Source of the DNA: a virus
Lineage: Duplodnaviria > Caudoviricetes
IMG/VR virus record: IMGVR_UViG_3300046777_001244
Span: 1 to 40,104 of that record
Direction: 5' to 3' (one strand)
Length of the DNA stretch: 40,104 bases
Numbering within the stretch: position 1 is the stretch's first letter; each line of letters begins with the position of its first letter. Made by a program: the position numbers and the translations under genes. Shown in pieces: positions 21,577 to 40,104 of the stretch. The notes below the pieces were generated by a model. It saw nothing but the letters and a program-made list of their open reading frames with translations, was not told where the DNA came from and searched no databases.

Positions 21577-21577
21577 G

Positions 21578-25623: not shown

Positions 25624-25625
25624 TC

Positions 25626-25856: not shown

Positions 25857-26053
25857 GCTTTCACCTTCATCTTCTTAACGTGCTTGGCCCTTACATCAGG
25901 GTCAAGGTCCATGATGAGTTCCCAGATCACCGCCACGGCTATGCCGTACCGGCCAGCCACCTGGTTCGCTGCGGTATCGGACTCGTAATTTTTGTGGTAC
26001 TTCCGAGCCTGTCGCTCCAAGTACGCCTCAACATCTTTAGAATCAAGGTGCAT
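25853..26053 (-). CDS. Hypothetical protein, first gene of leftward operon
   Basis: Start MHLDSK after CAGGAG. Confidence 0.65.
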   Translation of the reverse strand: MHLDSKDVEAYLERQARKYHKNYESDTAANQVAGRYGIAVAVIWELIMDLDPDVRAKHVKKMKVKA

Positions 26054-26075
26054 GTTGTGTTCTCCTGTGTGATGG

Positions 26076-26120
26076 ATTGGACCTGAACCTATCAGGTATG
26101 TCAACTAGGGGTTTACCCTA
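26076..26120 (-). promoter_or_regulatory. Leftward sigma70-like promoter with operator-like palindromes
   Basis: - strand TTGACA-17-TCCAAT; ACCTGA-N5-TCAGGT in spacer; TAGGG-N5-CCCTA abutting the -35. Confidence 0.6.
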
Positions 26121-26404
26121 TGAGAAGAGTTGCGCGGCGTGATGCCAATGAGAGAAGGGTGATCGACGCTCTACGGGCGTGCGGTGCTTACGTGAAGCAG
26201 ATCAACGACGAGGGAGCCTTCGATCTGCTGGTGTTCTACCGTGGGCATACGCTCTTGCTTGAGGTCAAAGACGGGGACAAGCCCCCCTCGGCCCGGGCGC
26301 TTACGCCAGCAGAAGCTAAATTTCACGCTGAGTGGCCCGGCAAAAATTTGTACATCGTCAACTCAGAGCATGAAGCGCTGGACATCCTGACGCGTTGTGT
26401 GTAG
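26120..26404 (+). CDS. VRR-NUC / Holliday-junction-resolvase-like nuclease
   Basis: RRDANE, FDLLV, LLEVKDG, LTPAE..F...W. Confidence 0.8.
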   Translation: MRRVARRDANERRVIDALRACGAYVKQINDEGAFDLLVFYRGHTLLLEVKDGDKPPSARALTPAEAKFHAEWPGKNLYIVNSEHEALDILTRCV

Positions 26405-26407
26405 CAT
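26379..26407 (+). promoter_or_regulatory. Putative promoter for small RNA
   Basis: TGGACA-17-TAGCAT; GTGTAGCATCGGG also present in the promoter at 32113-32125 (- strand). Confidence 0.5.
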
Positions 26408-26413
26408 CGGGAT

Positions 26414-26489
26414 GCCACGGTCCTCCCCCGTGGTTCTCCTGATCCGGTTGTAGTCCGGTTGAGCCCTGGGTGTCCGGGGCTCTTTTTTT
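26414..26489 (+). ncRNA. Candidate anti-Shine-Dalgarno small RNA (~75 nt)
   Basis: Hairpin GCCACGG-UCCUCCC-CCGUGGU, unpaired UCUCCUGA, second hairpin, intrinsic terminator. Confidence 0.5.
26461..26489 (+). terminator. Rho-independent terminator
   Basis: GAGCCCTGG-GTGT-CCGGGGCTC followed by T7. Confidence 0.85.
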
Positions 26490-26492
26490 AGA

Positions 26493-26717
26493 TCAGGGCA
26501 TCTCCAACGTCTTGAGCCGAGGCATACGCGGATCGACGCGGGGCAGTGTTGACAACACATCCTCCTTCTTTATAGGAGTAGAGGAAAGGCCAACAATTTT
26601 TTCCTCCGTGTTGAACCTGTGCAGGTTGGCGCACTGGTAGCGACGGCGGCGGGTGCCATCTCTCCTGAGAACCGACTCCAGAACTTCCGTCCATGTTCCG
26701 CACTGAGGACATTTCAT
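26493..26717 (-). CDS. NrdR-like Zn-ribbon protein
   Basis: MKCPQCG..V.ES..RRRRYQC..HRFNT.E. Confidence 0.7.
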   Translation of the reverse strand: MKCPQCGTWTEVLESVLRRDGTRRRRYQCANLHRFNTEEKIVGLSSTPIKKEDVLSTLPRVDPRMPRLKTLEMP

Positions 26718-27202
26718 TCCTCCTTGCCCCGAAAAGTTGCCACTGTATATTTGAGACGGCACCACCAGCACGATTTGGTTCTGTCGGAGCGCAGTTCCAT
26801 GTTTTGCAGTAGCAATGCGTTGTGATGTAGAGAAAGCAAGTGATACGCTTTTTCAGCGTTCTTTAAGTTTCGTTTATATGCCTCGATGAAGTCGTCTCGC
26901 GTAACCAAATTTCGGTTTGCTTCAAGGTAGTGAATCGCGTAGTCGGCATACTTGCGAGCCCACTCTTCTTGCTTGGCGGCGTCAGTGATATGAACACCTT
27001 GCAGAAACTCTCGCGCCCGCCAAGCCGCTAACGAACCAAAATAGTCCTTGTTCTTTGCAGCTTCCCAAGCGTCATACGCGGCGTAAACGCTCCGCTCCGC
27101 GCACAAGCGGTCCCATTCTTTGCCAACGCCTTTTTCATACGCAAAGGGCGTGTGGTCTTTGAGAGCGGCCCATAGACGGTCTTCGTGTTCTTGAAATGTC
27201 AT
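26714..27202 (-). CDS. Hypothetical protein
   Basis: 162-aa ORF with GGAG RBS. Confidence 0.65.
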   Translation of the reverse strand: MTFQEHEDRLWAALKDHTPFAYEKGVGKEWDRLCAERSVYAAYDAWEAAKNKDYFGSLAAWRAREFLQGVHITDAAKQEEWARKYADYAIHYLEANRNLVTRDDFIEAYKRNLKNAEKAYHLLSLHHNALLLQNMELRSDRTKSCWWCRLKYTVATFRGKEE

Positions 27203-27217
27203 TTCATTCTCCTTTCC

Positions 27218-27388
27218 TTATGCCCGCAGGTCTTCATACACAGACCACCAGCGTTTCCACTCGCGTACTTGGCACTCAACTAGAGAACCACGACCGCGCA
27301 TCGTGTCGAAAAAACCAACCAGCACGGGAAGCCAACAGAGCAACAGACCTGTCAGCGCAAAAACAATGTTTTGTAGTGCTCTTAGCAT
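27218..27388 (-). CDS. Small membrane protein
   Basis: Start MLRALQ after AGGAG; hydrophobic stretch; flanked by 14-bp direct repeats. Confidence 0.55.
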   Translation of the reverse strand: MLRALQNIVFALTGLLLCWLPVLVGFFDTMRGRGSLVECQVREWKRWWSVYEDLRA

Positions 27389-27389
27389 T

Positions 27390-27578
27390 TCATTCTCCTG
27401 CTTTCTCCACAAAATCTCCATTAGGGCACGGGCCATGCCCGGTCCACGGGCCGATCCACGACTGACGCTCTGCCTTGGGATGCACAGGGCTGTTATTCAC
27501 ATTCCGTTGACAGGTCTTGCACTGCTCAAGCAACGGGTTGCTCACGCAGCGGGCGAAGTCTTGGGGTAGGTAGTTCAT
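27390..27578 (-). CDS. Cys-rich hypothetical protein (LP.D.ARC..C..C.R)
   Basis: Start MNYLPQDFARC coupled to upstream stop. Confidence 0.65.
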   Translation of the reverse strand: MNYLPQDFARCVSNPLLEQCKTCQRNVNNSPVHPKAERQSWIGPWTGHGPCPNGDFVEKAGE

Positions 27579-27790
27579 TTCTTCCCCCTTGCTCTGATTG
27601 CTGCGGCGCAATCCTGAGCTATCCACTCAATGCTGTAAAACTCCTCGCACGCAGTAGCACACGCCTCGCGCTCGGCGGCGAGCAGCGCGTTGACGCCCTC
27701 AATCGTGAACAGGTATTCGACTTCGGCGTTCTGCTCCTGCACGGGCTTGCCGTGCTGGCGTGCCAGATTGATGATGTCGTCGCGGGTCAT
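27575..27790 (-). CDS. Hypothetical protein (TRDDII + AEREACA modules)
   Basis: Shared modules, ATGA coupling. Confidence 0.65.
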   Translation of the reverse strand: MTRDDIINLARQHGKPVQEQNAEVEYLFTIEGVNALLAAEREACATACEEFYSIEWIAQDCAAAIRARGKK

Positions 27791-28113
27791 GTGTTCCCCC
27801 TTGCGCGAATAGCGGCGGCGCACGAAGACGGAGTTACGCGAAGCCTGGCAGGGCACGAATTGCCCCACTGGTCGCTCCCATCGACCCACCTGTTTTTCTG
27901 CTGCTCACACACCTTCGCACACGCCTCGCGCTCGGCCTCCACCTCAATCTGAATCTCACGCTCGTAGCTCTGCTGCTGCAGGGCCAGGGTGCGGTTGAGT
28001 TCGTTGACCTCCGCATGCAGGCGGCGCAGTTCGGCTGCGGCTTTGTTGTGCATGGTCGTGTTGTATGACGCAGCCCAATCAGCCAGCCGCAGGGCGGTAG
28101 GTTGTTCACTCAT
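27787..28113 (-). CDS. Hypothetical protein (SEQP.ALRLA + AAAELRRLH + AEREACA modules)
   Basis: Shared modules. Confidence 0.7.
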   Translation of the reverse strand: MSEQPTALRLADWAASYNTTMHNKAAAELRRLHAEVNELNRTLALQQQSYEREIQIEVEAEREACAKVCEQQKNRWVDGSDQWGNSCPARLRVTPSSCAAAIRARGNT

Positions 28114-28325
28114 GTTCCCTCCTCTGTAGCCCGTGCGATAGCTGCGCGGGCAACCTCAGTCGCATTCACTCCAACGCTGCACCCATCGACGTAGTTCTTC
28201 AGCGCCTCCAGCAGTTCCCCGTTCAGGGCGTGCAGGCGGCGCAGTTCGGCGGCAGACCTGTGTTGCCCGACATGAGGCAGGTCAAGGTAATCAGCCAGAC
28301 TTAGGGCTTCGGGTTGTATGGTCAC
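28110..28325 (-). CDS. Hypothetical protein (AAELRRLH + NGELLEALK modules)
   Basis: Shared modules. Confidence 0.65.
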   Translation of the reverse strand: MTIQPEALSLADYLDLPHVGQHRSAAELRRLHALNGELLEALKNYVDGCSVGVNATEVARAAIARATEEGT

Positions 28326-28522
28326 TTCAGTTCTCCTTCACAAGCAATGGTTGCGTTGACGGCTTCCTCGTCGTCGCCGCATGCCCTCCACAAGGCGTCC
28401 TTCAGCACTTGGTTGTTGTGGTGCAACCGGCGCAGTTCGGCGGCGGCTTCGTCATTGATGTCGTTGCCGTAGCGGCTTTGAATGAGGGCAGCCAGCCGCA
28501 GGGCGGCAGGTTGTTCACTCAT
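28322..28522 (-). CDS. Hypothetical protein (SEQP.ALRLA module)
   Basis: First 33 nt match 27787-28113 at 32/33. Confidence 0.7.
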   Translation of the reverse strand: MSEQPAALRLAALIQSRYGNDINDEAAAELRRLHHNNQVLKDALWRACGDDEEAVNATIACEGELK

Positions 28523-28760
28523 GGTTCTTCTCCTTCAGTGCGGCCTCGATGGCGCGGGCGCATTCCCACGCATCAACGGCATTGCTCGCCATCTGGTCAA
28601 CTTCCTCATTCGTCAGGTCTTGCCACTCGCGGCGGGGTGGATCTTTTTTTGCAGCGTCATACGCACCGCGCAGCGTGTTGATTTGCGCCTGATGAATTTC
28701 CTCGCTCAGATCGTCTGTCCGCAGGATGGACTCAATCGCGGCCGATAAAGCGTCTGTCAT
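28515..28760 (-). CDS. Hypothetical protein (PPRREW..ARAIEAALK module)
   Basis: C-terminus shared with 28757-30079. Confidence 0.65.
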   Translation of the reverse strand: MTDALSAAIESILRTDDLSEEIHQAQINTLRGAYDAAKKDPPRREWQDLTNEEVDQMASNAVDAWECARAIEAALKEKNHE

Positions 28761-30079
28761 GTGTTCTTGCTCCTTAAAGCGGCCTCGATGGCGCGGGCAA
28801 ACTCGTCGAGTTGTTCTTCCGAGTAATAGCCCGGCTCTTTTTCGTACCCGCCCATCACAAAACCATCACGCACGGCCTTGGTGTTTTGCGATGTTGCATA
28901 AACAGGCGGCTTTGCTGGAGGGTGTGGGTACTCAACATCCTCATCCGTCAACCCTCGCCACTCGCGGCGGGGTGGGTCAGTGTAGAGCCTGTCACCGCGC
29001 TTGACGTGCGTTGCTGACGCATCGATGAGGCACCCAAGCGCCGGCACGCCGTTGTAGCTGCCCATTACCATCACCGTCGCCACCGGCTCCTGCTCCTCTG
29101 GGCGATCACGCATTTCAATCTGCCCGTCAATGAAGCCCTTCCGATATTCGTGCGCAGGATCAGGGTACGGCTGCTCCGTCTCGCGGCGGGGTGGGTGGAC
29201 CAAAGCTGACCCGTCTCGCAGCATACCTGCTGTGCCTGCCAATTCATCAGGCAAGTAGTCTCGTAGCCCATACTTTTCCCACGCATCACAGGACACCCTA
29301 ACCTTGTCCAAAACTTCAGCAGCTTCTGATATCAGTTCCAAAGCCTCTGCGTTGACTACCACCGGTTCCTGTTCCGTCTCGCGGCGGGGTGGGCGGGTGT
29401 AGAGGGCAAACGCCTTGTACGCGCCGACCAGATCGTGCGGGTTATCGGTGACATACGCCGACTTGCCGTCCTCCGTGTAGACCATCCACGCCACCGGCTC
29501 GGCCTGCTCCGGCTTCATCTCGGCCATGCCTGCCGCATACCCGGCTTCGTAGCCCGCGCCCCAACGGTCGGGCTCCTGCTCCGTCTGCCCTATGCCGTAC
29601 CCGCTGCGCTGGCAGATTCCTTGCGCGTGGCAGTCAGTGTCTTGCTCCATCGCCTCTCTCCTGCCGCGCTCAATCAGTTCCTGCGCAGCAGAGGAAACCA
29701 AGGGGTCGATCTGCACGGCGCAGTGCCAGTCAATCAGGCGCCGAATGGACTCTTGTGGATCATCGCTGGCAACCATGTGCAGGGTTGAAAGCTCATGGTC
29801 TACGGCATCGCGCCAAGGGTTCGGCTGCTCCAGCGGCACCCGCCTTGCGAATGCCGGGTTGTTGCCCAGGTCGCAGCCGGGTTCCCACTCCCCGGGGCAC
29901 TGGTCTTTGTGGCGGTCGCCGCAACTGCACTGCTCCATCGCGGCGCACAGATTGATCGCGGCCTGTCTTCCGGCTTGGGATGCCAACGGCGGCGCAAGCG
30001 ACTGCCAGCCGTTAAGTTCTTCCAATGCCTCCAGCGCCTGCTGGGCAGCGGTTCTCAGATCAGTCCCAGCCATTTCCAA
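28757..30079 (-). CDS. Concatenated-module hypothetical protein
   Basis: 440 aa; repeated EQEPV/PPRRE linkers between unrelated segments. Confidence 0.7.
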   Translation of the reverse strand: MEMAGTDLRTAAQQALEALEELNGWQSLAPPLASQAGRQAAINLCAAMEQCSCGDRHKDQCPGEWEPGCDLGNNPAFARRVPLEQPNPWRDAVDHELSTLHMVASDDPQESIRRLIDWHCAVQIDPLVSSAAQELIERGRREAMEQDTDCHAQGICQRSGYGIGQTEQEPDRWGAGYEAGYAAGMAEMKPEQAEPVAWMVYTEDGKSAYVTDNPHDLVGAYKAFALYTRPPRRETEQEPVVVNAEALELISEAAEVLDKVRVSCDAWEKYGLRDYLPDELAGTAGMLRDGSALVHPPRRETEQPYPDPAHEYRKGFIDGQIEMRDRPEEQEPVATVMVMGSYNGVPALGCLIDASATHVKRGDRLYTDPPRREWRGLTDEDVEYPHPPAKPPVYATSQNTKAVRDGFVMGGYEKEPGYYSEEQLDEFARAIEAALRSKNT

Positions 30080-30402
30080 ACCTCCAACAACAGGTTGCCC
30101 AATAGAACGGCAAACGCGGCTCCAGCCAGCGCGGCCACAATCACCTCATCCCTCTCACCAAACCACAACTTGATGCGGCTCCACAGTGTGCGGCGATCTG
30201 GTGTACGCACCGGCTCAACCGGTAGTTCTCCGCGGCATTGCGCCCACCAATTCGGAGACGCTTGCGCAAGCTGTTCGGGCATCAAGTCAGGCCACGCATT
30301 GCGCGCACCTTCAAACTGGCGGAGAGCCAGTTCTTCTTTGCTCATGGAGCACATTCCTTCATTCATGCGGCGCATGATGTCCTGTCGTTGCTCATCGGTC
30401 AT
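30055..30402 (-). CDS. Hypothetical protein with C-terminal TM helix
   Basis: Coupled ORF, AGGAG RBS. Confidence 0.6.
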   Translation of the reverse strand: MTDEQRQDIMRRMNEGMCSMSKEELALRQFEGARNAWPDLMPEQLAQASPNWWAQCRGELPVEPVRTPDRRTLWSRIKLWFGERDEVIVAALAGAAFAVLLGNLLLEVWKWLGLI

Positions 30403-30563
30403 GTCTTGCTCCTAAAACACTGCCACAAAGATTTGCGGTTCCGCCGCCCATTCAGGGATTGATCGTGATAGCGGCGTAACAGATAGACCAGCACACACCA
30501 GTACACGAATAAACCTACGCCAAAACCCATTACAAAGAACCCAAATATGTCTTCGGTTTTCAT
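30399..30563 (-). CDS. Small membrane protein
   Basis: Start MKTEDIFG; single TM. Confidence 0.5.
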   Translation of the reverse strand: MKTEDIFGFFVMGFGVGLFVYWCVLVYLLRRYHDQSLNGRRNRKSLWQCFRSKT

Positions 30564-30793
30564 GTCTTGCTCCTCTCGGGCCACCACGCGGGGCGGTCGG
30601 TCCATTCGACAGCAGCTTGAATATCTGCTGGCACTTTCACTACCGATTGATCCGCTGCTTCTTCGGCAGTCATCCCAATATGCGCTGGGAAACCCCACCG
30701 CTTCCCGTTCCACCACCGCAAAATATCGGCGTTTCGGCGGCTACTCGCAGGCCACCAGCCAATGCTGGGTGGCGGTCCCTTGTGCCATTTCAT
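30560..30793 (-). CDS. Trp-rich phage protein (WHKGPPPSIGWWPAS family)
   Basis: Recurring phage motif; coupled. Confidence 0.7.
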   Translation of the reverse strand: MKWHKGPPPSIGWWPASSRRNADILRWWNGKRWGFPAHIGMTAEEAADQSVVKVPADIQAAVEWTDRPAWWPERSKT

Positions 30794-31077
30794 TTCATCT
30801 CCTTTCCAATCTCAGCCGCAGCCCTGACGATGGCGCGGCGGGTGGCCTCTAAATCGTCTTCGCTTTTGTCTAGAAATAGCCGTCCCGAGACATCCCGGAC
30901 AGCCCCGATCATCACGGTTAGGTCTAGCTTCACCGCCAACCGCAGCGCATCGCCGTCGTCGTTGAGGGGGTTCCATCGTGCCCATTGGCCTGCGCCTTCC
31001 ATCCAAACATGAGTGCCGTCATGTAAAAGCAGTCCCGCCGCCTTAGCGGCGGCCTCAAGCAGTTCGCGGTCAGTCAT
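30790..31077 (-). CDS. TDRELLE family protein, paralogue 3
   Basis: WNPLNDDGDALRLAVKL..ATRRAIVRAAAEIGKEMK. Confidence 0.75.
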   Translation of the reverse strand: MTDRELLEAAAKAAGLLLHDGTHVWMEGAGQWARWNPLNDDGDALRLAVKLDLTVMIGAVRDVSGRLFLDKSEDDLEATRRAIVRAAAEIGKEMK

Positions 31078-31418
31078 TCCATGCTCCTCCCAATCTCAGC
31101 CGCGGCCCTGACGATGGCGCGGCGAGTGGCGGCGTAGGGGTCGCCCTTCTCGCTGGCGCAGACAGAACGCTCACATTTCGCGGATGCTGCGTGCGCCGAT
31201 GTGTTGTACACCTTCAGTTCCATTTCCAACTTCACCGCCAGCCGCATCGCCTGCGCGTCGTCACCCAGCGGGTTCCAGACAGTTTCCGAATAGGGCTGGC
31301 CTTGCACGTAATGCGTCATGGCCCAAACCGGACGGCGCTGCATGGTTCCGTCATCGCTCTCGTGAATCTCAACCCCAGCCGCCTTCGCAGCAAGTTCCAG
31401 CAGTTCACGATCTGTCAT
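31074..31418 (-). CDS. TDRELLE family protein, paralogue 4
   Basis: WNPLGDDAQAMRLAVKL..ATRRAIVRAAAEIG. Confidence 0.75.
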   Translation of the reverse strand: MTDRELLELAAKAAGVEIHESDDGTMQRRPVWAMTHYVQGQPYSETVWNPLGDDAQAMRLAVKLEMELKVYNTSAHAASAKCERSVCASEKGDPYAATRRAIVRAAAEIGRSME

Positions 31419-31961: not shown

Positions 31962-32097
31962 CTGACTTCTCCTTCAGTTGTTGAAAACACTCCGGCAAGG
32001 CACAAAAAAATGCACAATGGATGCCCCCGTGGATGTGAGCCTCCAGGGTAGCGATGCGCTCCCGCAGGACACGATTCTCTTCTAGCAGATCTTCCAT
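31921..32097 (-). CDS. Hypothetical protein, first gene of leftward operon
   Basis: Start MEDLLEE after GGAGG; 3' end overlaps next gene by 41 bp. Confidence 0.5.
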   Translation of the reverse strand: MEDLLEENRVLRERIATLEAHIHGGIHCAFFCALPECFQQLKEKSDERERVFPIHQSS

Positions 32098-32112
32098 CTT
32101 GCACCTCCAGAG

Positions 32113-32190
32113 CCCCGATGCTACACTGATCCTACCTGATGACAACTAGGGGTTTATACCTAGTGCATTCGGGCAACAGGAGAGTAGCAT
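32113..32190. promoter_or_regulatory. Divergent promoter pair around a CTAGG..CCTAG palindrome
   Basis: - strand TTGTCA-16-TAGCAT; + strand GTGCAT-16-TAGCAT; CAACTAGGGGTTTA identical to 26102-26115. Confidence 0.6.
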
Positions 32191-32220
32191 GAACGTCCTT
32201 GTTATGCAGGAGTACACAAG

Positions 32221-32418
32221 ATGGACAAGCAAGAGTTCAAGCGCCGGTGGGAGTCTGGCGATGACGGCGGCGGCATCACGATGGAGGACATTGCCGCGTG
32301 CTACGTTGAGTGGGGGTTGGGATCAACACCGCGCATACGGTCCCCACGTTCAGTGATTCGGGCTGTGGTTAAAGCGGCGGATACAAACGACCAAGACGAC
32401 TGGGAAGACGAGCTTTGA
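32221..32418 (+). CDS. Hypothetical protein
   Basis: AGGAG RBS; acidic tail. Confidence 0.7.
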   Translation: MDKQEFKRRWESGDDGGGITMEDIAACYVEWGLGSTPRIRSPRSVIRAVVKAADTNDQDDWEDEL

Positions 32419-32438
32419 CAAGACGACTGGGAAGACGA
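32392..32438 (+). repeat. 20-bp direct repeat straddling a stop codon
   Basis: CAAGACGACTGGGAAGACGA at 32392 and 32419. Confidence 0.9.
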
Positions 32439-32451
32439 CCAAGGAGCAAGC

Positions 32452-32775
32452 ATGAGCCTAGACGTAATGCTTTACGACGCCGATGGGACCGAGGTTTACT
32501 CGGCCAACATCACGCACAACCTCAACAAGATGGCCGACGAGGCGGGCATCTATGCCTGTCTGTGGCGCCCTGAAGAGAACGGCATCACGCACGCGCGGCA
32601 GATCATTGAGCCGCTGGCCGCCGGGCTGGTGCTGCTAGTGACCGAAAAGGCACGGTTTGAGCAGTTCAACGCCCCGAACGGCTGGGGGCTGTGGAAGCAC
32701 TTTGTTCCGTGGTGCGCCGCCTACCTGCAGGCGTGCCGGGACAACCCCGACGCGCTGGTGCGGGTGAGCCGCTGA
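32452..32775 (+). CDS. Conserved phage protein (SLDV..NITHNL..PNGWG family)
   Basis: AGGAG RBS; recognisable phage motif; GC-rich. Confidence 0.75.
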   Translation: MSLDVMLYDADGTEVYSANITHNLNKMADEAGIYACLWRPEENGITHARQIIEPLAAGLVLLVTEKARFEQFNAPNGWGLWKHFVPWCAAYLQACRDNPDALVRVSR

Positions 32776-32785
32776 ATTGGGTGCT

Positions 32786-32813
32786 GCATAACGTGAAATA
32801 GGCCGCATGCGGC
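32786..32813. repeat. TAACGTGAAATAGGCCGC motif, copy 1 (putative cassette landing site)
   Basis: 18 bp identical to 38967-38984; variant at 33003. Confidence 0.8.
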
Positions 32814-32825
32814 AGAGGAGAAGAA

Positions 32826-33005
32826 ATGGCATATACACCAAAGGACTGGTCTACGCCGGACTGGAAAAAAAAGAGCCGCGTGCATGAGTGGAAAAACTAC
32901 ATCAGCAAAGAGTTGGAAGCGATGTGGAGCACATTCAATGATGCGCAGAAGCAAGCGCTTGCCAGAAATGCTGACGACTTAGCGTCACGCGAACACTGGG
33001 ATTAA
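32826..33005 (+). CDS. 59-aa hypothetical protein absent from the ORF track (MAYTPKDW..HEWKNYIS..EHWD)
   Basis: GAGGAG RBS; open frame to TAA, which begins the repeat motif. Confidence 0.75.
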   Translation: MAYTPKDWSTPDWKKKSRVHEWKNYISKELEAMWSTFNDAQKQALARNADDLASREHWD

Positions 33006-33037
33006 CGTGAACAGGCCGCACGCCTTCGGCCTAACTT
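33000..33037. repeat. TAACGTGAA-CAGGCCGC..CGGCCTAACTT motif, copy 2
   Basis: Matches 38967-39001 in both arms. Confidence 0.75.
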
Positions 33038-33046
33038 TTGAACACC

Positions 33047-33847
33047 ATGAAAAAACTCAACATCAACAACATCATCATCGACAAGGGCACCCAGTCCCGT
33101 GCCGCGATCAGCGAGGATACGGTATCGGACTACGCCGAGGCGATGTCAGCGGGCGACGAGTTCCCGCCTGTGGTCGCTTTCCATGATGGTGTGGACTACT
33201 ACCTTGCCGATGGATTCCATAGGTTGCATGCCGTCAAGCGCCTGGGCAAGACCTCCATCCAAGCCGATGTGCGCACAGGAACTTTGAGGGATGCCATCCT
33301 GTACAGCCTGGGCGCGAACCGGGACCACGGTCTGCGCCGGAGCAATGCAGACAAGCGCAAGTGCGTTCAGACTTTGCTGGAAGACTTCGAGTGGGGCGAC
33401 CTCAGTGTGAACGAAATGGCCCGCATCTGTGGCGTTTCACCTCAGTTGGTGATGGCCGTGAAGCAGGAAAAGGACGCTGGCGAGAAGGTGAGCAGCGTTA
33501 ATTTTAACGCTCCGAAGAAAGCCAAGCCGGCAAAATTGGCGAACGTGGTGGAGGCTCCGCTTGAACCTCCGGGCGAGTTTGTCATTGACGAGAAGGACGA
33601 GGCCGTAGCAGAACTGATGGCCGAGAACCAGCGCCTGAGCGACCGGCTTGCGGTGGAAGCGATGGAAGCAAGTGAAGAGGAGAAGCAGGCGGCAGGCGAA
33701 ACCATCGCAGAACTGCGGGAGCAGATCCGCATCTTGGAGATTGAGAACCAAAGCCTGAAGATCAGCCGGGACACTTTCCAACGGGAGAACGCGGAGTTGA
33801 AGAAAACGGTGGCATCCCTGCAGCGAAAGCTGAAGAAGGAGGAGTGA
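33047..33847 (+). CDS. ParB N-terminal-domain protein with HTH and coiled coil
   Basis: FPPV, LADGFHR, HGLRR, SVNEMARICGVS. Confidence 0.8.
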   Translation: MKKLNINNIIIDKGTQSRAAISEDTVSDYAEAMSAGDEFPPVVAFHDGVDYYLADGFHRLHAVKRLGKTSIQADVRTGTLRDAILYSLGANRDHGLRRSNADKRKCVQTLLEDFEWGDLSVNEMARICGVSPQLVMAVKQEKDAGEKVSSVNFNAPKKAKPAKLANVVEAPLEPPGEFVIDEKDEAVAELMAENQRLSDRLAVEAMEASEEEKQAAGETIAELREQIRILEIENQSLKISRDTFQRENAELKKTVASLQRKLKKEE

Positions 33848-34224
33848 TGTCTAAGCGGAAGATCAGCGGCAAGTGGTTGCGCATGGCAGAGATGTACAAA
33901 CGATTTGCCAGTGATTACAAGTGCGCTGACTTCAGCGACGATGCTGCAATGGCAATGTACTTACATGAGTCCACCGGAGCGCCGCTGCCAGATCCAAAGA
34001 CGAACGGCTACGCGCTGGGAAAGAAATGGATGGACGTAACGGTTGCAGCATGGAAAGAGGAGATCCCTCAGATGGGGCTGCTTGTTTCTGAACTGCAAGC
34101 TGACGGCTATCCAGACTGGTTTCTTGAGCAAATTGGCGTGCTGCATCTTGAGCCAACAAGGCAGGCGTGCTCGTGGTGGATTGGAGAAGATTGGGCGCGC
34201 AAGCTGAAGAAGGAGGAAGCGTGA
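33844..34224 (+). CDS. Hypothetical protein
   Basis: Coupled; ends KLKKEE like upstream gene. Confidence 0.65.
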   Translation: MMSKRKISGKWLRMAEMYKRFASDYKCADFSDDAAMAMYLHESTGAPLPDPKTNGYALGKKWMDVTVAAWKEEIPQMGLLVSELQADGYPDWFLEQIGVLHLEPTRQACSWWIGEDWARKLKKEEA

Positions 34225-34478
34225 AGTTCAACATCAACGACATGGTGCGCGTGAAGTTAACTGACGTTGGCAGGAAAGCACTGGAGGATGAGCATAAGAA
34301 GTTCTGGTCCAGTGTTAAGCGCCCAGAGGAGCCATACACACCACCAAAGGAAGATGCTGATGGGTGGAGTGAATGGCAGTTGTGGTGTTTGATGAACAGA
34401 TTGGGCAGCTATGTGGAGATGGGAACTAAGGTGCCTTTTGAGACAACCATTGAGATTGTGAAGAAGGAAGAATCATGA
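34221..34478 (+). CDS. Conserved phage protein (FNIND.V.VKLT..G..QLW family)
   Basis: GTG start coupled to TGA, GGAGG RBS. Confidence 0.7.
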   Translation: MKFNINDMVRVKLTDVGRKALEDEHKKFWSSVKRPEEPYTPPKEDADGWSEWQLWCLMNRLGSYVEMGTKVPFETTIEIVKKEES

Positions 34479-34484
34479 AGGACA

Positions 34485-34504
34485 ACTTGAGCGACGGGTT
34501 AGGC
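34485..34504 (-). other. Truncated attC (R''-spacer-L'' only)
   Basis: - strand GCCTAAC-CCGTC-GCTCAAGT; no downstream L'/R' found. Confidence 0.7.
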
Positions 34505-34529
34505 CCGTTGCAACCGAAGCGAGAAAAGC

Positions 34530-34745
34530 ATGCACACCAGAAAAGCGTTCTTGATTTACCCGCCCAACTACAAGCCGGGCGACGGCTACAAGGTGCGCCG
34601 CTCAAAGCGGCAGGCATGGAAGGAGGCCGTTCGCATGGGCGAAGGCGCATCGGTTGACGTTCAAAAGCAGACGCACCCGGCCCCGCGCACGCGCTGGAAC
34701 TCAAGCGTCAGCCGCCCGCTTTGGGTGCTGGAGAAACGGGCCTAA
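34530..34745 (+). CDS. Cassette 1 ORF, hypothetical basic protein
   Basis: Stop TAA lies inside the GCCTAAC core site. Confidence 0.7.
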   Translation: MHTRKAFLIYPPNYKPGDGYKVRRSKRQAWKEAVRMGEGASVDVQKQTHPAPRTRWNSSVSRPLWVLEKRA

Positions 34746-34825
34746 CGCACCAGCTCAGCGGCGGCCCGCTGGGTGATTCAATAACCAAGCTGCTGGCGGC
34801 CGTCCGCTGCAGCGCACTGTTCGGC
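34740..34825 (-). other. attC site (86 bp)
   Basis: - strand GCCGAAC-AGTGC-GCT[G]CAGCGG[A]CGG...CCGCCGCTGAGC-TGGTGC-GTTAGGC; 5/6-bp spacers and two extrahelical bases. Confidence 0.9.
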
Positions 34826-34852
34826 CTCTGGTGCCGAAGCGAAGGGAAGGCG

Positions 34853-35077
34853 ATGGACATGCTGACACTGCGGCTCGAAAGCCGCGAGGGCGACCGCATG
34901 CTGTGGGTGCCCGAAGAGGCGCGCGGCGACCCCGAGCACTTCCTCTGCCAGCAGGGGACGATCACGCGATTCAACGGCGAGCGCGTGATGATGAAGTTCG
35001 ACGAAGAGGTCGAAGGCGCCGGCTGGGACGCAGCGCGCGAGGTGGCCATCGACCCGCGCAACCTGCGCGTGCTGTGA
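34853..35077 (+). CDS. Cassette 2 ORF, small SH3/KOW-like beta protein
   Basis: ATG after GGAAGG; TGA 1 bp before core site; fold is a guess. Confidence 0.7.
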   Translation: MDMLTLRLESREGDRMLWVPEEARGDPEHFLCQQGTITRFNGERVMMKFDEEVEGAGWDAAREVAIDPRNLRVL

Positions 35078-35078
35078 G

Positions 35079-35132
35079 GCCTAACGTTCGAGCTAAGCCG
35101 CCGCAGGTCGGCGCTTGAGCGAGTAGTTCGGC
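35079..35132 (-). other. attC site (54 bp)
   Basis: - strand GCCGAAC-TACTC-GCT[C]AAGC..GCTTAGC-TCGAAC-GTTAGGC. Confidence 0.9.
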
Positions 35133-35157
35133 TGGGTCCGAAGCGAAAGGAAAGACG

Positions 35158-35406
35158 ATGACCATGAAACTGAAGGGCGCGCGCGCCCGCAACTTCATAG
35201 CTGCCGCGCTGGTGGACCAGTACGGCGCGAGAGCCCGCGACAAGTGCTGCGGCGAAATGCTGGCGGCCGTAGAGCGCGAGCTTGCCTTCCGCGACCGAGC
35301 CAGCGTGCTGGACAACCCGGCCGGCATGACGATGAGCGAATGGCGCGCAGCGAACCCGGAGCCCACGCACGGCTGCGGGCACATGCAAGGCCGCGGCGCA
35401 GCTTGA
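35158..35406 (+). CDS. Cassette 3 ORF, hypothetical protein
   Basis: AGGA RBS; TGA 1 bp before GCCGAAC. Confidence 0.7.
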   Translation: MTMKLKGARARNFIAAALVDQYGARARDKCCGEMLAAVERELAFRDRASVLDNPAGMTMSEWRAANPEPTHGCGHMQGRGAA

Positions 35407-35407
35407 A

Positions 35408-35425
35408 GCCGAACGTGTGTTAGGC
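35408..35425 (-). other. Simple recombination-site-like palindrome (attI/attG-like) at array head
   Basis: GCCGAAC-GTGT-GTTAGGC, two core-like heptamers with 4-bp spacer. Confidence 0.6.
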
Positions 35426-35446
35426 GACATCAACTGGTAAACCACG

Positions 35447-35936
35447 CCCACGCCAGCGGGCTAGTGCTGGCATCAGGAGAAATCAAATGATTTATGAGAT
35501 GGGCAGACAAATGCCGACGCCAGCGCAAAGGCGCATACTTCGAGAGATTGCTGATGACTCATTCACAATGTCTCTGCCGATAGATTTTGGCAACGTGCCA
35601 TGTGGGGAGAAGTGGGAGCCTGACATGTCAACAAGTACGGCGTTTCGCATGCGGAATGTTCCGCCTCATACAGACCGGCGTAGCCCTGGGGATTATGTTG
35701 GAATCAGCAGACCTCGCAACTATGTGGCTGTATTCTGGCTGGTGGACATGCCAAATGGTGAAGGCTTGTATTTGCAGGTTGGCGGCGTGGCACGATCCAT
35801 GCGGCAAGGCGACTTTGTAGTTTTCAAAGACAGCGTGTTGCACAGTGTTATTTCAGATCGCGTATGGCGCGGATGCGCGTATCAGGCAAGACCCAAAAGA
35901 ACATAAAACACCCCCACGCCAGCGGGCTAGTGCTGG
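35447..35936 (+). repeat. 24-bp perfect direct repeats flanking the oxygenase gene
   Basis: CCCACGCCAGCGGGCTAGTGCTGG at 35447-35470 and 35913-35936; contains a hairpin. Confidence 0.92.
35487..35906 (+). CDS. 2OG-Fe(II) oxygenase / cupin-like protein
   Basis: PPHTD (HxD), GDFVVF...LHSV pattern. Confidence 0.6.
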   Translation: MIYEMGRQMPTPAQRRILREIADDSFTMSLPIDFGNVPCGEKWEPDMSTSTAFRMRNVPPHTDRRSPGDYVGISRPRNYVAVFWLVDMPNGEGLYLQVGGVARSMRQGDFVVFKDSVLHSVISDRVWRGCAYQARPKRT

Positions 35937-35951
35937 CAGCGGAGAACTTAA

Positions 35952-37415
35952 TTGAAACTAGAACTGAGAGAGGCGCAAGTCCGCGCCATTGAGCTACTGC
36001 GAGAAGGCTTTGCACAAGGCCACCGCTCTCAAATACTTGCCGCGCCTGTAGGTTTTGGGAAGACTGAAGTAGCTATTGCCTTGCTTGAAGCGGCAAAAAA
36101 AAAGGGCACAAGATCATCAATGATCCTTGACCGCATAGTTCTTTGCGATCAAACGTCTCAGCGCCTTGATAAGTACGGTATTGACCACGGCGTACTCCAG
36201 TCAGGACATTGGCGCTACAGGCCCAGCGAATACATACAGGTGTGCTCCGCGCAAACCTTGGAAGCAAGGGGCTCTGTACCCGATACCAAGCTGCTTATCA
36301 TCGATGAATGCCATTGCTCCCGCAAAGCCACCAACGACCTCATAAAGAATAACCCGCACATTAAAGTTGTCGGGTTATCTGCAACCCCGCTAACCAAGGG
36401 GCTTGGAAAGATTTATTCCAATGTGATTAACCCAATCACAACGAAAGAACTGGTTGAGAAAAAGCTACTTACCCCGCTAAAAGTATTTATCTCCAAGGAG
36501 ATTGATATGAAAGGGGCAAAGAAAGTAGCGGGAGAATGGTCAGATGCAGAGGCTTCTTCAAGGGCGATGAAAATCGTTGGTGATGTAGTTGCCGAATGGG
36601 TAAAGAAGACTCACGAAATATACGGCAAGCCTGTCAAAACAATCGTGTTCTGTGCTGGCGTTGAGCACGGTGCAGAGTTAGCTAGTAGGTTCCGTGAGCA
36701 AGGATACAACTTCGTAAGTATTTCGTACAGAGATGACGATCAGTTTAAGAAGGACGTCATTGAAGACTTCTCAAAACCTGATACAGAGATACACGGTATC
36801 TGCGCCGTAGACATACTTACCAAAGGTTTCTCGGTTGACGATGTGCATATCGGAATATCTGCCAGACCATTCTCAAAGTCTTTGTCATCGCATATTCAGC
36901 AAATGGGCAGGGTTATGCGGACGCATAGCACCAAACAATTTGCAACGTGGCTTGATTTTTCGGGAAACTATTTAAGGTTCAGAGAAGACTGGGAGAAGAT
37001 ATACGAAAGCGGTATTGATGAGCTTGATGACAAGGGGGAGAAGGCTAAGAAAGAACCCGACGAGAAGGAGAAGAAAGAAGCAAAGTGCCCCGCCTGCGGA
37101 GCCCTGTGGCCGCGTGGTTCAGATACTTGCTTGAACTGCGGGCATGAGAGGGAGCGTAAGAGTGCTGTCGTATCTGTACCCGGCCAGATGGAAGAACTGG
37201 GCTCCATGTCCCGAGACGACAAACAGGCATGGTGGAGCATGGGTCAATACATGGTGCAGTCTGGATCGTGGTCAGACAAGCGTGCTCTTGCGATTTACCG
37301 CGAGAAATTTGGTGTGTGGCCCCGTGGTCTGCATGCCACCCCGTTACCGCCGACACGGGCATTTGAGAGCTTCGCAATCAAGAGCATCAGGAAGTACCTG
37401 AAGGGCAAGCGATGA
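35952..37415 (+). CDS. Superfamily 2 DEAD/DEAH-box helicase with Zn finger
   Basis: APVGFGKT, DECH, LSATP, QQMGRVMR, CPAC..CLNC. Confidence 0.92.
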   Translation: MKLELREAQVRAIELLREGFAQGHRSQILAAPVGFGKTEVAIALLEAAKKKGTRSSMILDRIVLCDQTSQRLDKYGIDHGVLQSGHWRYRPSEYIQVCSAQTLEARGSVPDTKLLIIDECHCSRKATNDLIKNNPHIKVVGLSATPLTKGLGKIYSNVINPITTKELVEKKLLTPLKVFISKEIDMKGAKKVAGEWSDAEASSRAMKIVGDVVAEWVKKTHEIYGKPVKTIVFCAGVEHGAELASRFREQGYNFVSISYRDDDQFKKDVIEDFSKPDTEIHGICAVDILTKGFSVDDVHIGISARPFSKSLSSHIQQMGRVMRTHSTKQFATWLDFSGNYLRFREDWEKIYESGIDELDDKGEKAKKEPDEKEKKEAKCPACGALWPRGSDTCLNCGHERERKSAVVSVPGQMEELGSMSRDDKQAWWSMGQYMVQSGSWSDKRALAIYREKFGVWPRGLHATPLPPTRAFESFAIKSIRKYLKGKR

Positions 37416-38230
37416 AGTTTCTAGACTTCTGCCGTGCCCACGGCATCCTTATTGACCATCTTCCTCCTGTCGGCCTGTGGAGGAGGTATCCCACCGAGGA
37501 CAAGCCGCGCCACAAGAACGGAGCAGTCAAGTGGATGCTTGACCACGGCTTCGTCCAAAACCACGCCACGGAGGTAACAGTTTCCGTCTGGAGACCTGAC
37601 GAGCCCGTAAAAATTAACAGGCGAGACCTAGCCGAGCAGGCCCGCAGAGCAGAGCAGGATACTCTGCGCAGGCAAGCTGAGGCGGCCAAGAAAGCAGCTT
37701 GGATACTTCACCAATGTCAGTACGCATCTCATCCATATCTCAAGGCCAAGGGCTTTCCCGATGAGGTTGGAAATGTTTGGGTTAGGGAAGGTGAGCATCT
37801 GCTGGTGATCCCCATGAGAATTGGGCAGAGGCTGGTGGGTGTCCAACTGATCGACGCTGCGGGCGGCAAGAAATTCTTGAGCGGTCAGGTCACAGGCGGC
37901 GCGGAGTACGTGATAGATAACCGAGGCCCGCACTTTTTGGCAGAAGGTTTTGCCACGGCCTTGAGCCTGCGGATGATCCTCAAAAATTGGAAGCGCAGGT
38001 ACACCATCCATGTGTGCTTCAGCGCAGGGAACATGCTCAAGATCGCCCAGACCTTGCCAGGGGGCTACGTCATAGCAGATCACGATGCCTCAGGGACCGG
38101 GGAGCGGGTAGCCCGTGAGATAGGCTGGCCGTTCTGGATGTCTGACAAGATAGGCGACTGCAACGACCATCACCTGCGGGAAGGGCTTTTCAGGACGGGG
38201 CAGTCAGTGCTGCGGGCTCTCAAAATTTAG
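37412..38230 (+). CDS. DNA primase, TOPRIM domain
   Basis: HPYL..KG, VQLID..GGKKFL, AEGFATA, ADHD, DCND. Confidence 0.85.
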   Translation: MKFLDFCRAHGILIDHLPPVGLWRRYPTEDKPRHKNGAVKWMLDHGFVQNHATEVTVSVWRPDEPVKINRRDLAEQARRAEQDTLRRQAEAAKKAAWILHQCQYASHPYLKAKGFPDEVGNVWVREGEHLLVIPMRIGQRLVGVQLIDAAGGKKFLSGQVTGGAEYVIDNRGPHFLAEGFATALSLRMILKNWKRRYTIHVCFSAGNMLKIAQTLPGGYVIADHDASGTGERVAREIGWPFWMSDKIGDCNDHHLREGLFRTGQSVLRALKI

Positions 38231-38246
38231 GGGTACCAAGCATCCT

Positions 38247-38293
38247 CAACTGGTGTAAGCCCTATGTTGCTATCAGGTAGGATGGTGTAAGAT
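38247..38293 (+). promoter_or_regulatory. Putative promoter sharing ATCAGGTAGGAT spacer motif
   Basis: TTGCTA..TGTAAGAT with ATCAGGTAGGAT identical to - strand 32129-32140; CAACT..CCCTA upstream. Confidence 0.55.
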
Positions 38294-38305
38294 GGATGTA
38301 GACAG

Positions 38306-38601
38306 ACAGGAGAAATGATGAAGACGACTGTTTACACGGTGCATGCCTACCGATGGGGCGACCATGAGTGCAACAGCTACATCGTGGGCGTGTATTCCGA
38401 GGCTCACGCAGCACTCAAGGCTGCCGAAGTTGAAGAGGACTACAGAGGCGGGAAATACTCGTGCGAAGTACTGGAATGGACTTTAGACAGCGGCATGGAA
38501 GGCAACCACGATACCGTGCACGCGCCGAAGACCGTGAGGCCACTTGTCAAGTTTTCTCAAAAGATACGGAACGTGAAATAAGCACACAGGAGAAATGATG
38601 A
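38306..38601 (+). repeat. 16-bp direct repeats (RBS plus start) flanking a gene
   Basis: ACAGGAGAAATGATGA at 38306 and 38586. Confidence 0.85.
38315..38581 (+). CDS. Conserved phage protein (AYRWG..SY.VG..RGGKY family)
   Basis: Strong RBS; recognisable motif. Confidence 0.7.
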   Translation: MMKTTVYTVHAYRWGDHECNSYIVGVYSEAHAALKAAEVEEDYRGGKYSCEVLEWTLDSGMEGNHDTVHAPKTVRPLVKFSQKIRNVK

Positions 38602-38969
38602 CCAAGGATAACTGCCCCGATGGGTCCGCGTTGAGCGAGGGGTTAGGCGCCGACGCTTGGGCGATGGCGCGCTTGGCCCGAATGACGCTATGGCTGGCCT
38701 ACTGCTGGAACGACCACAACTTCCAGAAGCGGCCCGACCAGTACGCACGGGAGTGCGCCAAGGAACTCGGCATCGCGGGCTTTGAGGACGCGAACGACTG
38801 GCTGCAAGGCGTGAAGGTCGAGAACCCGCGCCGCACGCTGCCGGCACTGCCTGCCGCGAAGGTGCTGGCAAGCGGCACGATCAGCGGCAAGCGCGTGGAA
38901 CTGAAGGGCTGGCATGAGGACGACCTGAAAGCGTGGGCCGAGAAACACGGCTTCGCCTTCGGGGCCTAA
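38595..38969 (+). CDS. Cassette-derived hypothetical protein (AYCWNDHNF motif)
   Basis: Reads through attC remnant (SALSEGLG); stop inside GCCTAAC. Confidence 0.7.
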   Translation: MMTKDNCPDGSALSEGLGADAWAMARLARMTLWLAYCWNDHNFQKRPDQYARECAKELGIAGFEDANDWLQGVKVENPRRTLPALPAAKVLASGTISGKRVELKGWHEDDLKAWAEKHGFAFGA

Positions 38970-38981
38970 CGTGAAATAGGC
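38629..38981 (-). mobile_element. Solo integron-type cassette with degraded attC
   Basis: GTTAGGCGCCGA (38642) vs TCGGGGCCTAAC (38959) 11/12 complementary; - strand GCCTAAC-CCCTC-GCT[C]AACGCGG[A]CCC. Confidence 0.75.
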
Positions 38982-38997
38982 CGCTTCGTGCGGCCTA
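38977..38997. other. Perfect hairpin between convergent genes; part of landing-site motif copy 3
   Basis: TAGGCCGC-TTCGT-GCGGCCTA. Confidence 0.7.
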
Positions 38998-39001
38998 ACT
39001 T

Positions 39002-39193
39002 CTAGTGCTTCCCCGCTGACAGCGTGGGCATGTCCACCTTGAAAACCTCGGGGTGCTGCATTTCCAAGTACGACAGATGCCCCAAAATTTGCAGGCCGAG
39101 GGACAGAACTTGCTCGTCCTGGCCCACGGCATCAGATCGGATGGAGATCCGACCGTCCTCTTGGATGAGGGTGATGTTTACTACGGTGGTCAA
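39002..39193 (-). CDS. Hypothetical protein
   Basis: TTG start coupled to upstream TGA. Confidence 0.55.
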   Translation of the reverse strand: MTTVVNITLIQEDGRISIRSDAVGQDEQVLSLGLQILGHLSYLEMQHPEVFKVDMPTLSAGKH

Positions 39194-39354
39194 TTGCAGG
39201 TCACATCGCACCGACGAAGAGCCCCACTTCCATAGCAGCACTCAGAGCAGTAAACGGTTCGCCCATTCATCGTCATTGTGAAGTACCGACAGGTGTAGGC
39301 CAGGGCAGCAGTGGCGAAAAGGGTAGCGGCGAGGAAAGCGACAGTTTTCTTCAC
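39190..39354 (-). CDS. Small secreted Cys-rich protein
   Basis: GTG start after CAGGAG; signal peptide KKTVAFL..ALA; six Cys in ~35-aa mature part. Confidence 0.7.
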   Translation of the reverse strand: MKKTVAFLAATLFATAALAYTCRYFTMTMNGRTVYCSECCYGSGALRRCDVTCN

Positions 39355-39414
39355 GGGATTCTCCTGTTTGCCGAAATGGCGGTGAATGGTGCCATGCCTT
39401 AGCGGATGGCGCAA

Positions 39415-39434
39415 TACTGTGAATTTTTACAGTG
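39415..39434. promoter_or_regulatory. LexA (SOS) box
   Basis: TA-CTGT-GAATTTTT-ACAG-TG. Confidence 0.75.
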
Positions 39435-39823
39435 TCGGAAACTACAGACGGACTACCTCTTACCCATGAAGCCTGCCTGCCCGATTCCGGGGAACTTTAC
39501 AGCTTCACAGACCCTTTACCAGAACCGCCTGCCACGTTTTTACGGTGACTTATGGGGCGTACTCATCTGCCTACAGCATCCCGGACGACGGGCTTCGCTA
39601 GTCTTTCGTCCGTTACTCCTCCGAGGAGGTTGGTCGCTGTCCGCTGGCTTTAATCCTGCTCATCACAGGGTTCTGTATATCCCTTTGGCTTTCGCTACTT
39701 GGGCGTGCGGGTGCATCACACGGGGTGCTAGGCATAACCCTCCTAGCCAGTGCCATACATGGCTTGCCGTATTTCCTTCCGCGCTGCCTACGAAGGCACT
39801 TGCTATCGTGCGGAGTACGGGCG

Positions 39824-39936
39824 AAAAAAAACCGCTAGAACAGACCCCGGTGGCAACTTCCCTGAGAGGGAGTACCCCATGCGGGGTCGGAGTCTGATCT
39901 AGCGGCTCTCTCTGCTCGTTGCCACACAAGCAGATG
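39824..39936 (-). ncRNA. c4-like antisense RNA with upstream target hairpin and terminator
   Basis: Main stem CCGCTAGA/TCTAGCGG, two minor hairpins, unpaired GTTGCCAC complementary to upstream GTGGCAAC, T8 tail. Confidence 0.75.
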
Positions 39937-39942
39937 GGCAGG

Positions 39943-39971
39943 ATTATAGATCAGTCCTTTGAGTGGTGCAA
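39943..39971 (-). promoter_or_regulatory. Strong sigma70 promoter
   Basis: TTGCAC-17-TATAAT. Confidence 0.8.
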
Positions 39972-39983
39972 GTGGGTAGTCGT

Positions 39984-40006
39984 AAAAAAGCCCGCCGAAG
40001 CGGGCT
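39984..40006 (-). terminator. Rho-independent terminator
   Basis: AGCCCGC-TTCG-GCGGGCT followed by T run on - strand. Confidence 0.85.
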
Positions 40007-40009
40007 GGT

Positions 40010-40104
40010 TCATGCTTCGATCAACTTTTCCAGAAGTCCGCAGGGGTCGAAGGTTTCCCACGCCTTCGCCCACGCCGCCCGCCCAGCCGCATACGCCGCC
40101 AAGG
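40010..40104 (-). CDS. 3' end of a gene truncated by the window edge (Ala/Trp-rich)
   Basis: ..AAWAKAWETFDPCGLLEKLIEA* followed by terminator. Confidence 0.55.
   Translation of the reverse strand, partial: LAAYAAGRAAWAKAWETFDPCGLLEKLIEA

Follow-up and report, generated by a model that had tools for sequence, protein, structure and literature searches.

Orphan attI-type sites filled with reversed gene cassettes in a tailed phage and its relatives

Introduction

How does a phage without a recognisable integrase come to carry integron gene cassettes, and what are the short motifs that stand beside them? The question is raised by IMG/VR record IMGVR_UViG_3300046777_001244 (Duplodnaviria; Caudoviricetes), a linear sequence of 40,104 bp that makes up the entire entry, is estimated to be 63% complete, and is here called the window. 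An original prediction, made from the sequence alone, pointed to four motifs at 32786, 33000, 35408 and 38964 as reusable docking sites for cassette capture driven by a host integron integrase (IntI). All four are present exactly there, and a fifth, decayed copy absent from that list lies at 38566-38585. Judged by comparison with related phages and host genomes, the motifs are quite probably orphan attI-type sites of the kind found in chromosomal integrons of the Burkholderiaceae, common freshwater and soil bacteria, and would serve host IntI as places to insert and remove cassettes bounded by attC sites. While clusters of attC in phages have already been published, orphan attI-type sites filled with reversed cassettes and reused across phages are a real feature. 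Loci outside the window are referred to by L numbers.

Five attI-like sites in the window

The attC top strand corresponds to the minus strand of the window, as the 8-base L'' of its two full attC sites, with the extra L'' base, lies on that strand. Read on this strand, each of the four predicted motifs ends in G/TT (the slash marking the crossover) at the stop end of a small plus-strand gene. Ranks below refer to a matrix built from host attI sites and applied to all 1,315 GTT in the window.

32786..32806, minus strand: site 1, short attI-like site, internal between two genes (crossover G at 32792; rank 2)
33000..33035, minus strand: site 2, attI-like and one base short, with an upstream GTTAGGC box and a weak hairpin, preceding a ParB-like gene (crossover G at 33006)
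35408..35427, minus strand: site 3, attI-like simple site heading a three-cassette array (crossover G at 35414; rank 4)
38964..38999, minus strand: site 4, attI-like at full length, with a hairpin and an upstream GTTAGGC box (crossover G at 38970; rank 1)
38566..38585, minus strand: site 5, decayed attI-like copy with a poor R box (crossover G at 38572; rank 3 with 46 host calls, rank 5 with 51)

The site consensus comprises an L-like box, YCTA, at -11 to -8, followed by six bases and G/TT. All five sites have GTT at the cut, and an R box of the form G/TTRRRY is present at the crossover of sites 1, 2 and 4, while site 3 carries the variant TTCGGC. Recurrence of the motif is borne out by sites 1 and 4, which have 15 bases in common, but not by site 3, which has a different sequence and is not a copy of them. 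With the attI1 spacing read from locus L379, the box lies one base nearer the crossover than in attI1 in sites 1, 3 and 4, as had been proposed, but two bases nearer in site 2, which has a one-base gap. A pattern fitted to three copies gave 3 matches against 0.02 expected, a number reached in none of 100 shuffles, yet the statistic is weak because the fit was made post hoc.

The motif was also predicted to head every cassette locus. This holds for sites 3 and 4, which head attC-bearing cassettes, but not for sites 1 and 2, which have no adjoining attC; site 1 instead sits between two genes. As for the hairpins ascribed to three sites, site 4 folds better than its shuffles (z -3.0), whereas the values for sites 2 and 1 are -1.2 and -0.8. 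The site-4 hairpin is real but lacks the T run of an intrinsic terminator, and a terminator-like scan of the window gave 10 matches against 7.6 expected, with no site among them. The GTTAGGC box, around 30 nucleotides (nt) upstream in sites 2 and 4, was looked at as a possible counterpart of the direct repeats DR1 and DR2 of attI, described as differing among integron classes (PMC3146285); upstream similarity to hosts is mostly not significant.

Cassettes at the sites

The cassettes of the window and their attC sites, full or reduced to halves, are as follows.

34485..34504, minus strand: half attC (R'' and L''), end of cassette 3 of the site-3 array
34485..34745, plus strand: cassette 3 of the site-3 array, gene 34530-34745
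34740..34825, minus strand: full attC, 86 nt
34746..35084, plus strand: cassette 2, gene 34853-35077, antisense to the attC top strand
35079..35132, minus strand: full attC, 54 nt, resembling attC of Burkholderiaceae genomes
35085..35413, plus strand: cassette 1, gene 35158-35406, its first six bases the exact complement of its own R''
38629..38648, minus strand: half attC (R'' and L'') of the site-4 cassette
38629..38969, plus strand: cassette at site 4, with a reading frame (38595-38969) passing through the half attC
32452..32791, plus strand: former cassette, a gene of 107 amino acids (aa; 32452-32775) plus a 3' tail that reaches exactly to site 1, without an attC of its own here

By our own pattern scan, not by IntegronFinder, the attC at 34740-34825 and 35079-35132 form an attC cluster without an integron integrase (CALIN), that is, at least two close attC without intI. 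Several phage attC have a reading frame that starts within the attC and passes through R'' (in the window at 38595 and 34475), and the spacer between L' and R' has 5 rather than 6 bases in 29 of 106 phage attC arms (L154-L289).

Heading an attC-bounded array whose first cassette complements its own R'' is one mark of an attI, and this is seen at sites 3 and 4, at site 1 solely via L172, and not at site 2. In L172, a gene 92% identical to that of the former cassette has the same 20-nt tail and attC on both sides; the tail runs to the same AAC and then into an attC arm, and the crossover is therefore fixed. GTTATGC at around 32201 was tried as the R'' of site 1 and ruled out, as L085 differs there without carrying a cassette. 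In L172, L561 and L564 the gene family of 32452-32775 takes the form of a cassette, each time with another core end; most of 21 relatives have it as a plain gene, in one case 93% identical (L556), as if its genes passed into and out of cassette form.

Reuse of the sites in related phages

Searching IMG/VR with a pattern of 16 letters, the four bases beyond GTT left free, gave 59 loci. The expected association with attC in other phage genomes was found: on its cassette side, each of the nine distinct copies of the core of sites 1 and 4 is accompanied by an attC arm at a distance of at most 600 bases, and the other side has no arm in any copy. Eight of the nine distinct IMG/VR copies have RRRY after GTT. 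Among 38 other pattern matches, an attC arm is seen in one (L022, a variant site) and RRRY in two. Matrices for attC trained on these and later loci gave 254 real matches versus 0 in 1.24 Mb of shuffled sequence, and many arrays contain intact attC, of which 174 are distinct.

At a locus outside the window, the first cassette at one shared junction differs in each of six relatives (L003, L008, L013, L018, L053, L491), and in L015 a new cassette is stacked before the one that comes first in L012. For the sites of the window, the different first neighbours number seven in 8 records for site 2 (one with a full-length core), three for site 4, and two each for sites 3 and 1, in a table of 28 rows in which L347 is probably a chance match and from which L013, L053 and L022 were left out by a filter. 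In L078, site 4 is identical over 36 nt with other cassettes behind it and site 3 has a different cassette, while in L295 site 1 and its leader precede another gene; altogether, at least five unrelated genes have the same core before them. Cores that depart from TTAGGC complement the R'' of their own cassette in four of five cases (L008, L053, L037 by eye, and site 3 of the window; not L012), and such cores leave merely 3-5 shared bases at the junction. In addition, a gene is inserted in the hairpin loop of a site-4-type copy at L037:601-1000 (the record of L078), splitting its arms, and L079, L098 and L103 have a different attI-like site at the position of site 3, before the helicase leader, with two different neighbours.

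The genes of these cassettes mostly run backwards relative to attC. Among 146 phage cassettes, the gene is antisense to the attC top strand in 107, sense in 8 and unclear in 31 (related contigs not being independent), whereas 28 host cassettes comprise 13 sense, 3 antisense and 12 unclear. All cassette genes in the window point toward their site, not away from it with the cassette promoter Pc behind them as in a complete integron. Given this antisense orientation relative to the attC top strand, their expression would depend on phage transcription heading for the site and not on a Pc behind it.

Similarity to attI sites of the Burkholderiaceae

Host integrons were surveyed in 251 genomes sampled from the family of a Hylemonella genome, which we take to be the Burkholderiaceae of GTDB; IntI was above the cut-off in 104 of them. 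From 96 stretches upstream of intI, 51 distinct attI were called from their position and their complementarity to the first R'', with upstream sequence playing no part, and 31 intI-upstream stretches without an attC arm gave no call. The YCTA box is found at -11 in 21 of the 51 host attI and at -12, its position in attI1, in 2; therefore, the one-base-closer spacing is the usual one in the sampled Burkholderiaceae. A statement of this spacing was not found in the literature covered.

The matrix built on positions -14 to -2 of 46 host calls, five of the 51 having been removed by hand as far from intI or attC-like, places sites 4, 1, 5 and 3 at ranks 1-4 in the window and site 2 at 118. With all 51 calls, sites 4, 1, 5, 3 and 2 take ranks 1, 2, 5, 4 and 150, and these ranks hold after dropping the two closest hosts and after bootstrapping, whereas column shuffling gives median ranks of 315-780. 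Site 2 fails unaligned but reaches 7.3 bits once its one-base gap is allowed. Sites 1 and 4 agree with one host attI at 12 of 14 bases, as do none of 400 random GTT sites.

Independent phage arrays were collected with an attC-arm pattern, yielding 136 loci from 20 of the 64 parts of IMG/VR. Array heads other than a full attC number 71, of which 13 are lone attC arms and 58 are other sequences, two of the latter being the window's own. Among the remaining 56 heads, YCTA lies at -11 in 13 and at -12 in 2, and 17 of them score above the window's 99th percentile, versus 5 of 106 internal attC arms.

A cellular counterpart is found in the Hylemonella genome itself (L296:2080-3060): directly after ureG, beside urease genes, two forward cassettes stand at an orphan site that is a copy of the genome's own attI, intI lying on another contig; 13 of 15 bases of this orphan site are like site 4. 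A pattern search for an empty version in 41 genomes of the genus gave only scattered near-matches. The exact motif matched seven times in 185,579 species genomes, with an attC arm beside two (the Hylemonella orphan site and L295, a 968-bp phage-like contig) and none beside the other five; it was not found next to intI among these matches, the five without an attC arm not having been checked for intI. A metagenome search added 49 matches, mostly chance, two with strong attC arms and three further ones of phage type.

Recombinase and host

No match to the tyrosine recombinase family PF00589 was found in the 63% complete window or in five relatives, one of them 100% complete with three copies of site 2, and no match to PF00239 in four records. 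Likewise, no site has the intI beside attI of a complete integron. Since different cassettes stand at the junctions and no integrase was found on the phage, host IntI acting in trans is the likely catalyst. The predicted capture at reusable docking sites thus draws support from the cassette junctions, the different cassettes in relatives and the lack of a phage integrase, whereas the claim that the phage keeps such sites is only partly borne out and an empty site was not seen.

We infer that the host family is the Burkholderiaceae, the window attC resembling those in genomes of the sampled family. A search for the host by prophage or CRISPR match in 401 genomes returned attC and generic gene matches only, and among the 10 of 24 matches viewed none lay in a CRISPR array. 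No close cultured phage was found, the best being a primase match of 48%.

Genomic context of the window

Among 32 proteins scanned, the window encodes an endolysin, virion proteins, an exonuclease, a ParB-like protein, a helicase and a primase, and all sites and cassettes fall within a rightward block at 32.2-39.0 kb. Rfam gave no match within 32000-40104, and the cassette genes had no Pfam match at the curated threshold. Three further features of the block adjoin the sites.

32826..33005, plus strand: 59-aa gene between sites 1 and 2, phrog_9546, RecX-like by PHROG label, without attC
38315..38581, plus strand: 88-aa gene ending inside site 5
38252..38293, plus strand: inverted homologue of a promoter-like element at 32118-32160, accompanying the site-4/5 block in L078

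The 59-aa gene has a single IMG/VR relative, which is not a cassette. On both sides of the 88-aa gene the ribosome-binding region recurs as a 16-nt direct repeat (38306-38321 and 38586-38601); L078 lacks the gene and has a single copy of the repeat. The element at 38252..38293, missed by the promoter scan, is a possible promoter of the site-4/5 block, with a 15-nt spacer.

Other repeats and modules are found nearby and elsewhere in the window. A 35-nt repeat with a small hairpin (35438-35472 and 35904-35938) bounds variable genes and is kept before the helicase in relatives. A short tandem duplication at 32390-32443, the end of a 65-aa gene, marks the joint where the attC of the former cassette is missing. 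The minus-strand region 19600-31400 holds many small genes whose starts and ends recur (families D1-D9), as is typical when gene modules are shuffled, and attC were not found there. A virion-region gene (6511-6681) contains three 57-nt tandem copies, and a 54-aa Cys-rich small protein, probably secreted, is encoded at 39190-39354 (minus strand), conserved in relatives and also adjoining the second cassette locus.

A proposed mechanism

Judged from its sequence, the system would work like an integron platform minus the integrase, being neither a complete integron nor a set of attG sites. Host IntI would insert and remove cassettes while the phage DNA is inside the cell, this exchange presumably still going on, and attC sites would decay after insertion to half sites or disappear. 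Sites 1 and 5 are likely pieces of a site carried at the far end of a gene, arising as in delta-attI cassettes or via short-repeat recombination. Site-plus-cassette blocks would likely pass whole between phages by recombination at short ribosome-binding repeats, and site 2 may be a one-base-shorter derivative of doubtful activity.

Weighing the alternatives

Several observations weigh against a simple docking pad used by host IntI. An empty site was found in no relative: the site is present, and always filled, in 5 of 16 relatives before parB, in 2 of 27 after the primase, and, at the other locus, in 6 of the 36 closest of 78; those relatives that have no cassette lack it entirely. Neither site 1 nor site 2 has an attC beside it in the window, nor does site 2 in the relatives inspected. 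Site 2, although poorly spaced, has the most varied neighbours, and short-repeat recombination could also give such variety. The site-5 gene is bracketed by the 16-nt direct repeat, the 35-nt repeat follows site 3, and L103 carries three tandem short copies of site 2 with no attC seen among them. These repeats and tandem copies make it likely that short-repeat recombination also shifts site-cassette modules, so the variety at site 2 need not be the work of IntI. Moreover, 36 of the 56 phage heads have no box in any register, and phage heads are therefore mixed. Upstream of the L box, sites 1, 3, 4 and 5 are not significantly similar to host attI (null fraction 0.19-0.61; 0.04 for site 2), so that the two origins, host capture or convergence on the same enzyme, are not separable; descent from one host attI was rejected as a candidate on the same ground. 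The search for the host by prophage or CRISPR match and the incompleteness of the record, noted above, count on this side as well.

Much of this could be accommodated if the junctions were fossils: each would have arisen a single time, in a host or an ancestral phage, and would owe its later spread and reshuffling solely to short-homology recombination of the phages, acting at the AACGTG core and the ribosome-binding repeats, with IntI now inactive on the phage. Such an origin would account for the failure to find empty sites, the block-wise gain and loss, the direct repeats bordering modules, the three tandem copies in L103, the decay of attC in the window and the presence of exonuclease genes. 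However, it sits poorly with the one locus where six different single cassettes all have junctions exact to the base, with cores that follow the cassette's own R'' in four of five informative cases, with the stacking in L015 relative to L012, and with the many arrays that retain intact attC (174 distinct), and we consider it rather unlikely.

Another possibility is that host IntI used chance secondary targets of the attG type, pre-existing in the phage backbone, once or a few times. An attG, as described, spans 18 nt around a central cut and carries GWT together with CRGM as its right motif; it resembles the phage sites as an IntI target outside an integron with the crossover at G/TT, and many GWT sites receive cassettes through IntI1-3 (Loot et al., bioRxiv 10.1101/2022.09.11.507474); the phage heads lacking a recognisable box would fit this as well. 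Yet cassette-free relatives lack the site, which therefore did not pre-exist at these loci, the same core precedes unrelated genes, and the site travels with cassettes. In addition, the conserved box at -11 to -8 extends outside the 9+9-nt attG. In L003, L008, L013 and L053, the backbone after the last attC misfits CRGM at +6 to +9, while the window arrays end in half sites that are unreadable in this respect. The link to attG drawn in the original prediction was accordingly dropped, the sites matching instead ordinary Burkholderiaceae chromosomal attI with the same box spacing, and chance targets of this kind appear very improbable. We give equally little credence to the motifs being decayed 3' attC arms or terminator-like hairpins and not targets at all. 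Sites 1 and 5 do stand where an attC would, 13 of the 71 heads are lone attC arms, and the site-4 hairpin lies at an operon end. Nevertheless, the motifs do not form the imperfect palindrome R''-L''...L'-R' of an attC, none of the 174 distinct full attC has a 3' arm within three mismatches of the motif, and no R'' partner lies upstream in the copies examined. No sites are among the ten terminator-like matches, and the host attI matrix picks the sites but merely 5 of 106 attC arms. A full attC family with the motif as its 3' arm was sought and rejected, none being present in the 174 or among the collection matches.

Relation to known integron systems

As far as the sources describe it, the attI simple site, as in attI1, resembles the phage sites in having an L-like box and an inverted G/TTRRRY box and in heading attC-bounded cassettes (PMC12901181, PMC3146285); the phage sites differ from attI1 in the L box one base nearer the crossover. 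The closest likeness is with intI-adjacent attI of Burkholderiaceae, which share both spacing and consensus. Unlike chromosomal attI, the phage sites have no adjoining intI, occur in several copies per genome, receive genes pointing toward them and have no Pc shown.

In phages, Qi et al. 2023 reported 17 CALINs in 10,705 genomes, proposed off-target or illegitimate recombination, and showed that IntI1 recombines 5 of 6 phage attC; they also described a cryptic Shewanella prophage in which a CALIN begins with an attI, and noted that the boundaries of CALINs have GTTRRRY motifs (PMC9892861). Like the window, these CALINs are phage-borne attC arrays without an integrase, whereas the main text of that paper describes neither a recurrent attI-type site reused across phages nor reversed genes. 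A literature search that mostly did not cover subscription journals found no report of reused orphan attI sites or reversed cassettes in phages.

The attI1 boxes and the delta-attI cassettes, the latter in class 1 and 2 integrons, have been described by Gonzales Machuca et al. 2026 (PMC12901181). In sites 1 and 5 and the three L103 copies, as in delta-attI cassettes, a piece of attI replaces attC at the far end of the gene. Unlike in delta-attI, the four bases before the L103 copy are those of the site and not of the cassette's R'', and the origin proposed in that source, recombination between an L box and R'', therefore fits inexactly.

Implications

If confirmed, these sites would make the host integron enzyme a gene-swapping tool of phages and add a site-specific route to mosaicism beside homologous and illegitimate recombination. 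A single 18-base attC-arm pattern by itself leads to an estimate of about 410 IMG/VR stretches, versus the 17 published phage CALINs. Reversed genes, together with a gene family in both cassette and plain form, bear on the origin of cassettes, listed as a knowledge gap in PMC12901181. More speculatively, and in our view somewhat short of probable, a freshwater phage group may run an integrase-free backwards integron, with portable host-type attI modules, borrowed host IntI, a shared pool of reversed-gene cassettes, and ordinary phage genes becoming cassettes. If this were true, phages would be a place where new integron cassettes arise.

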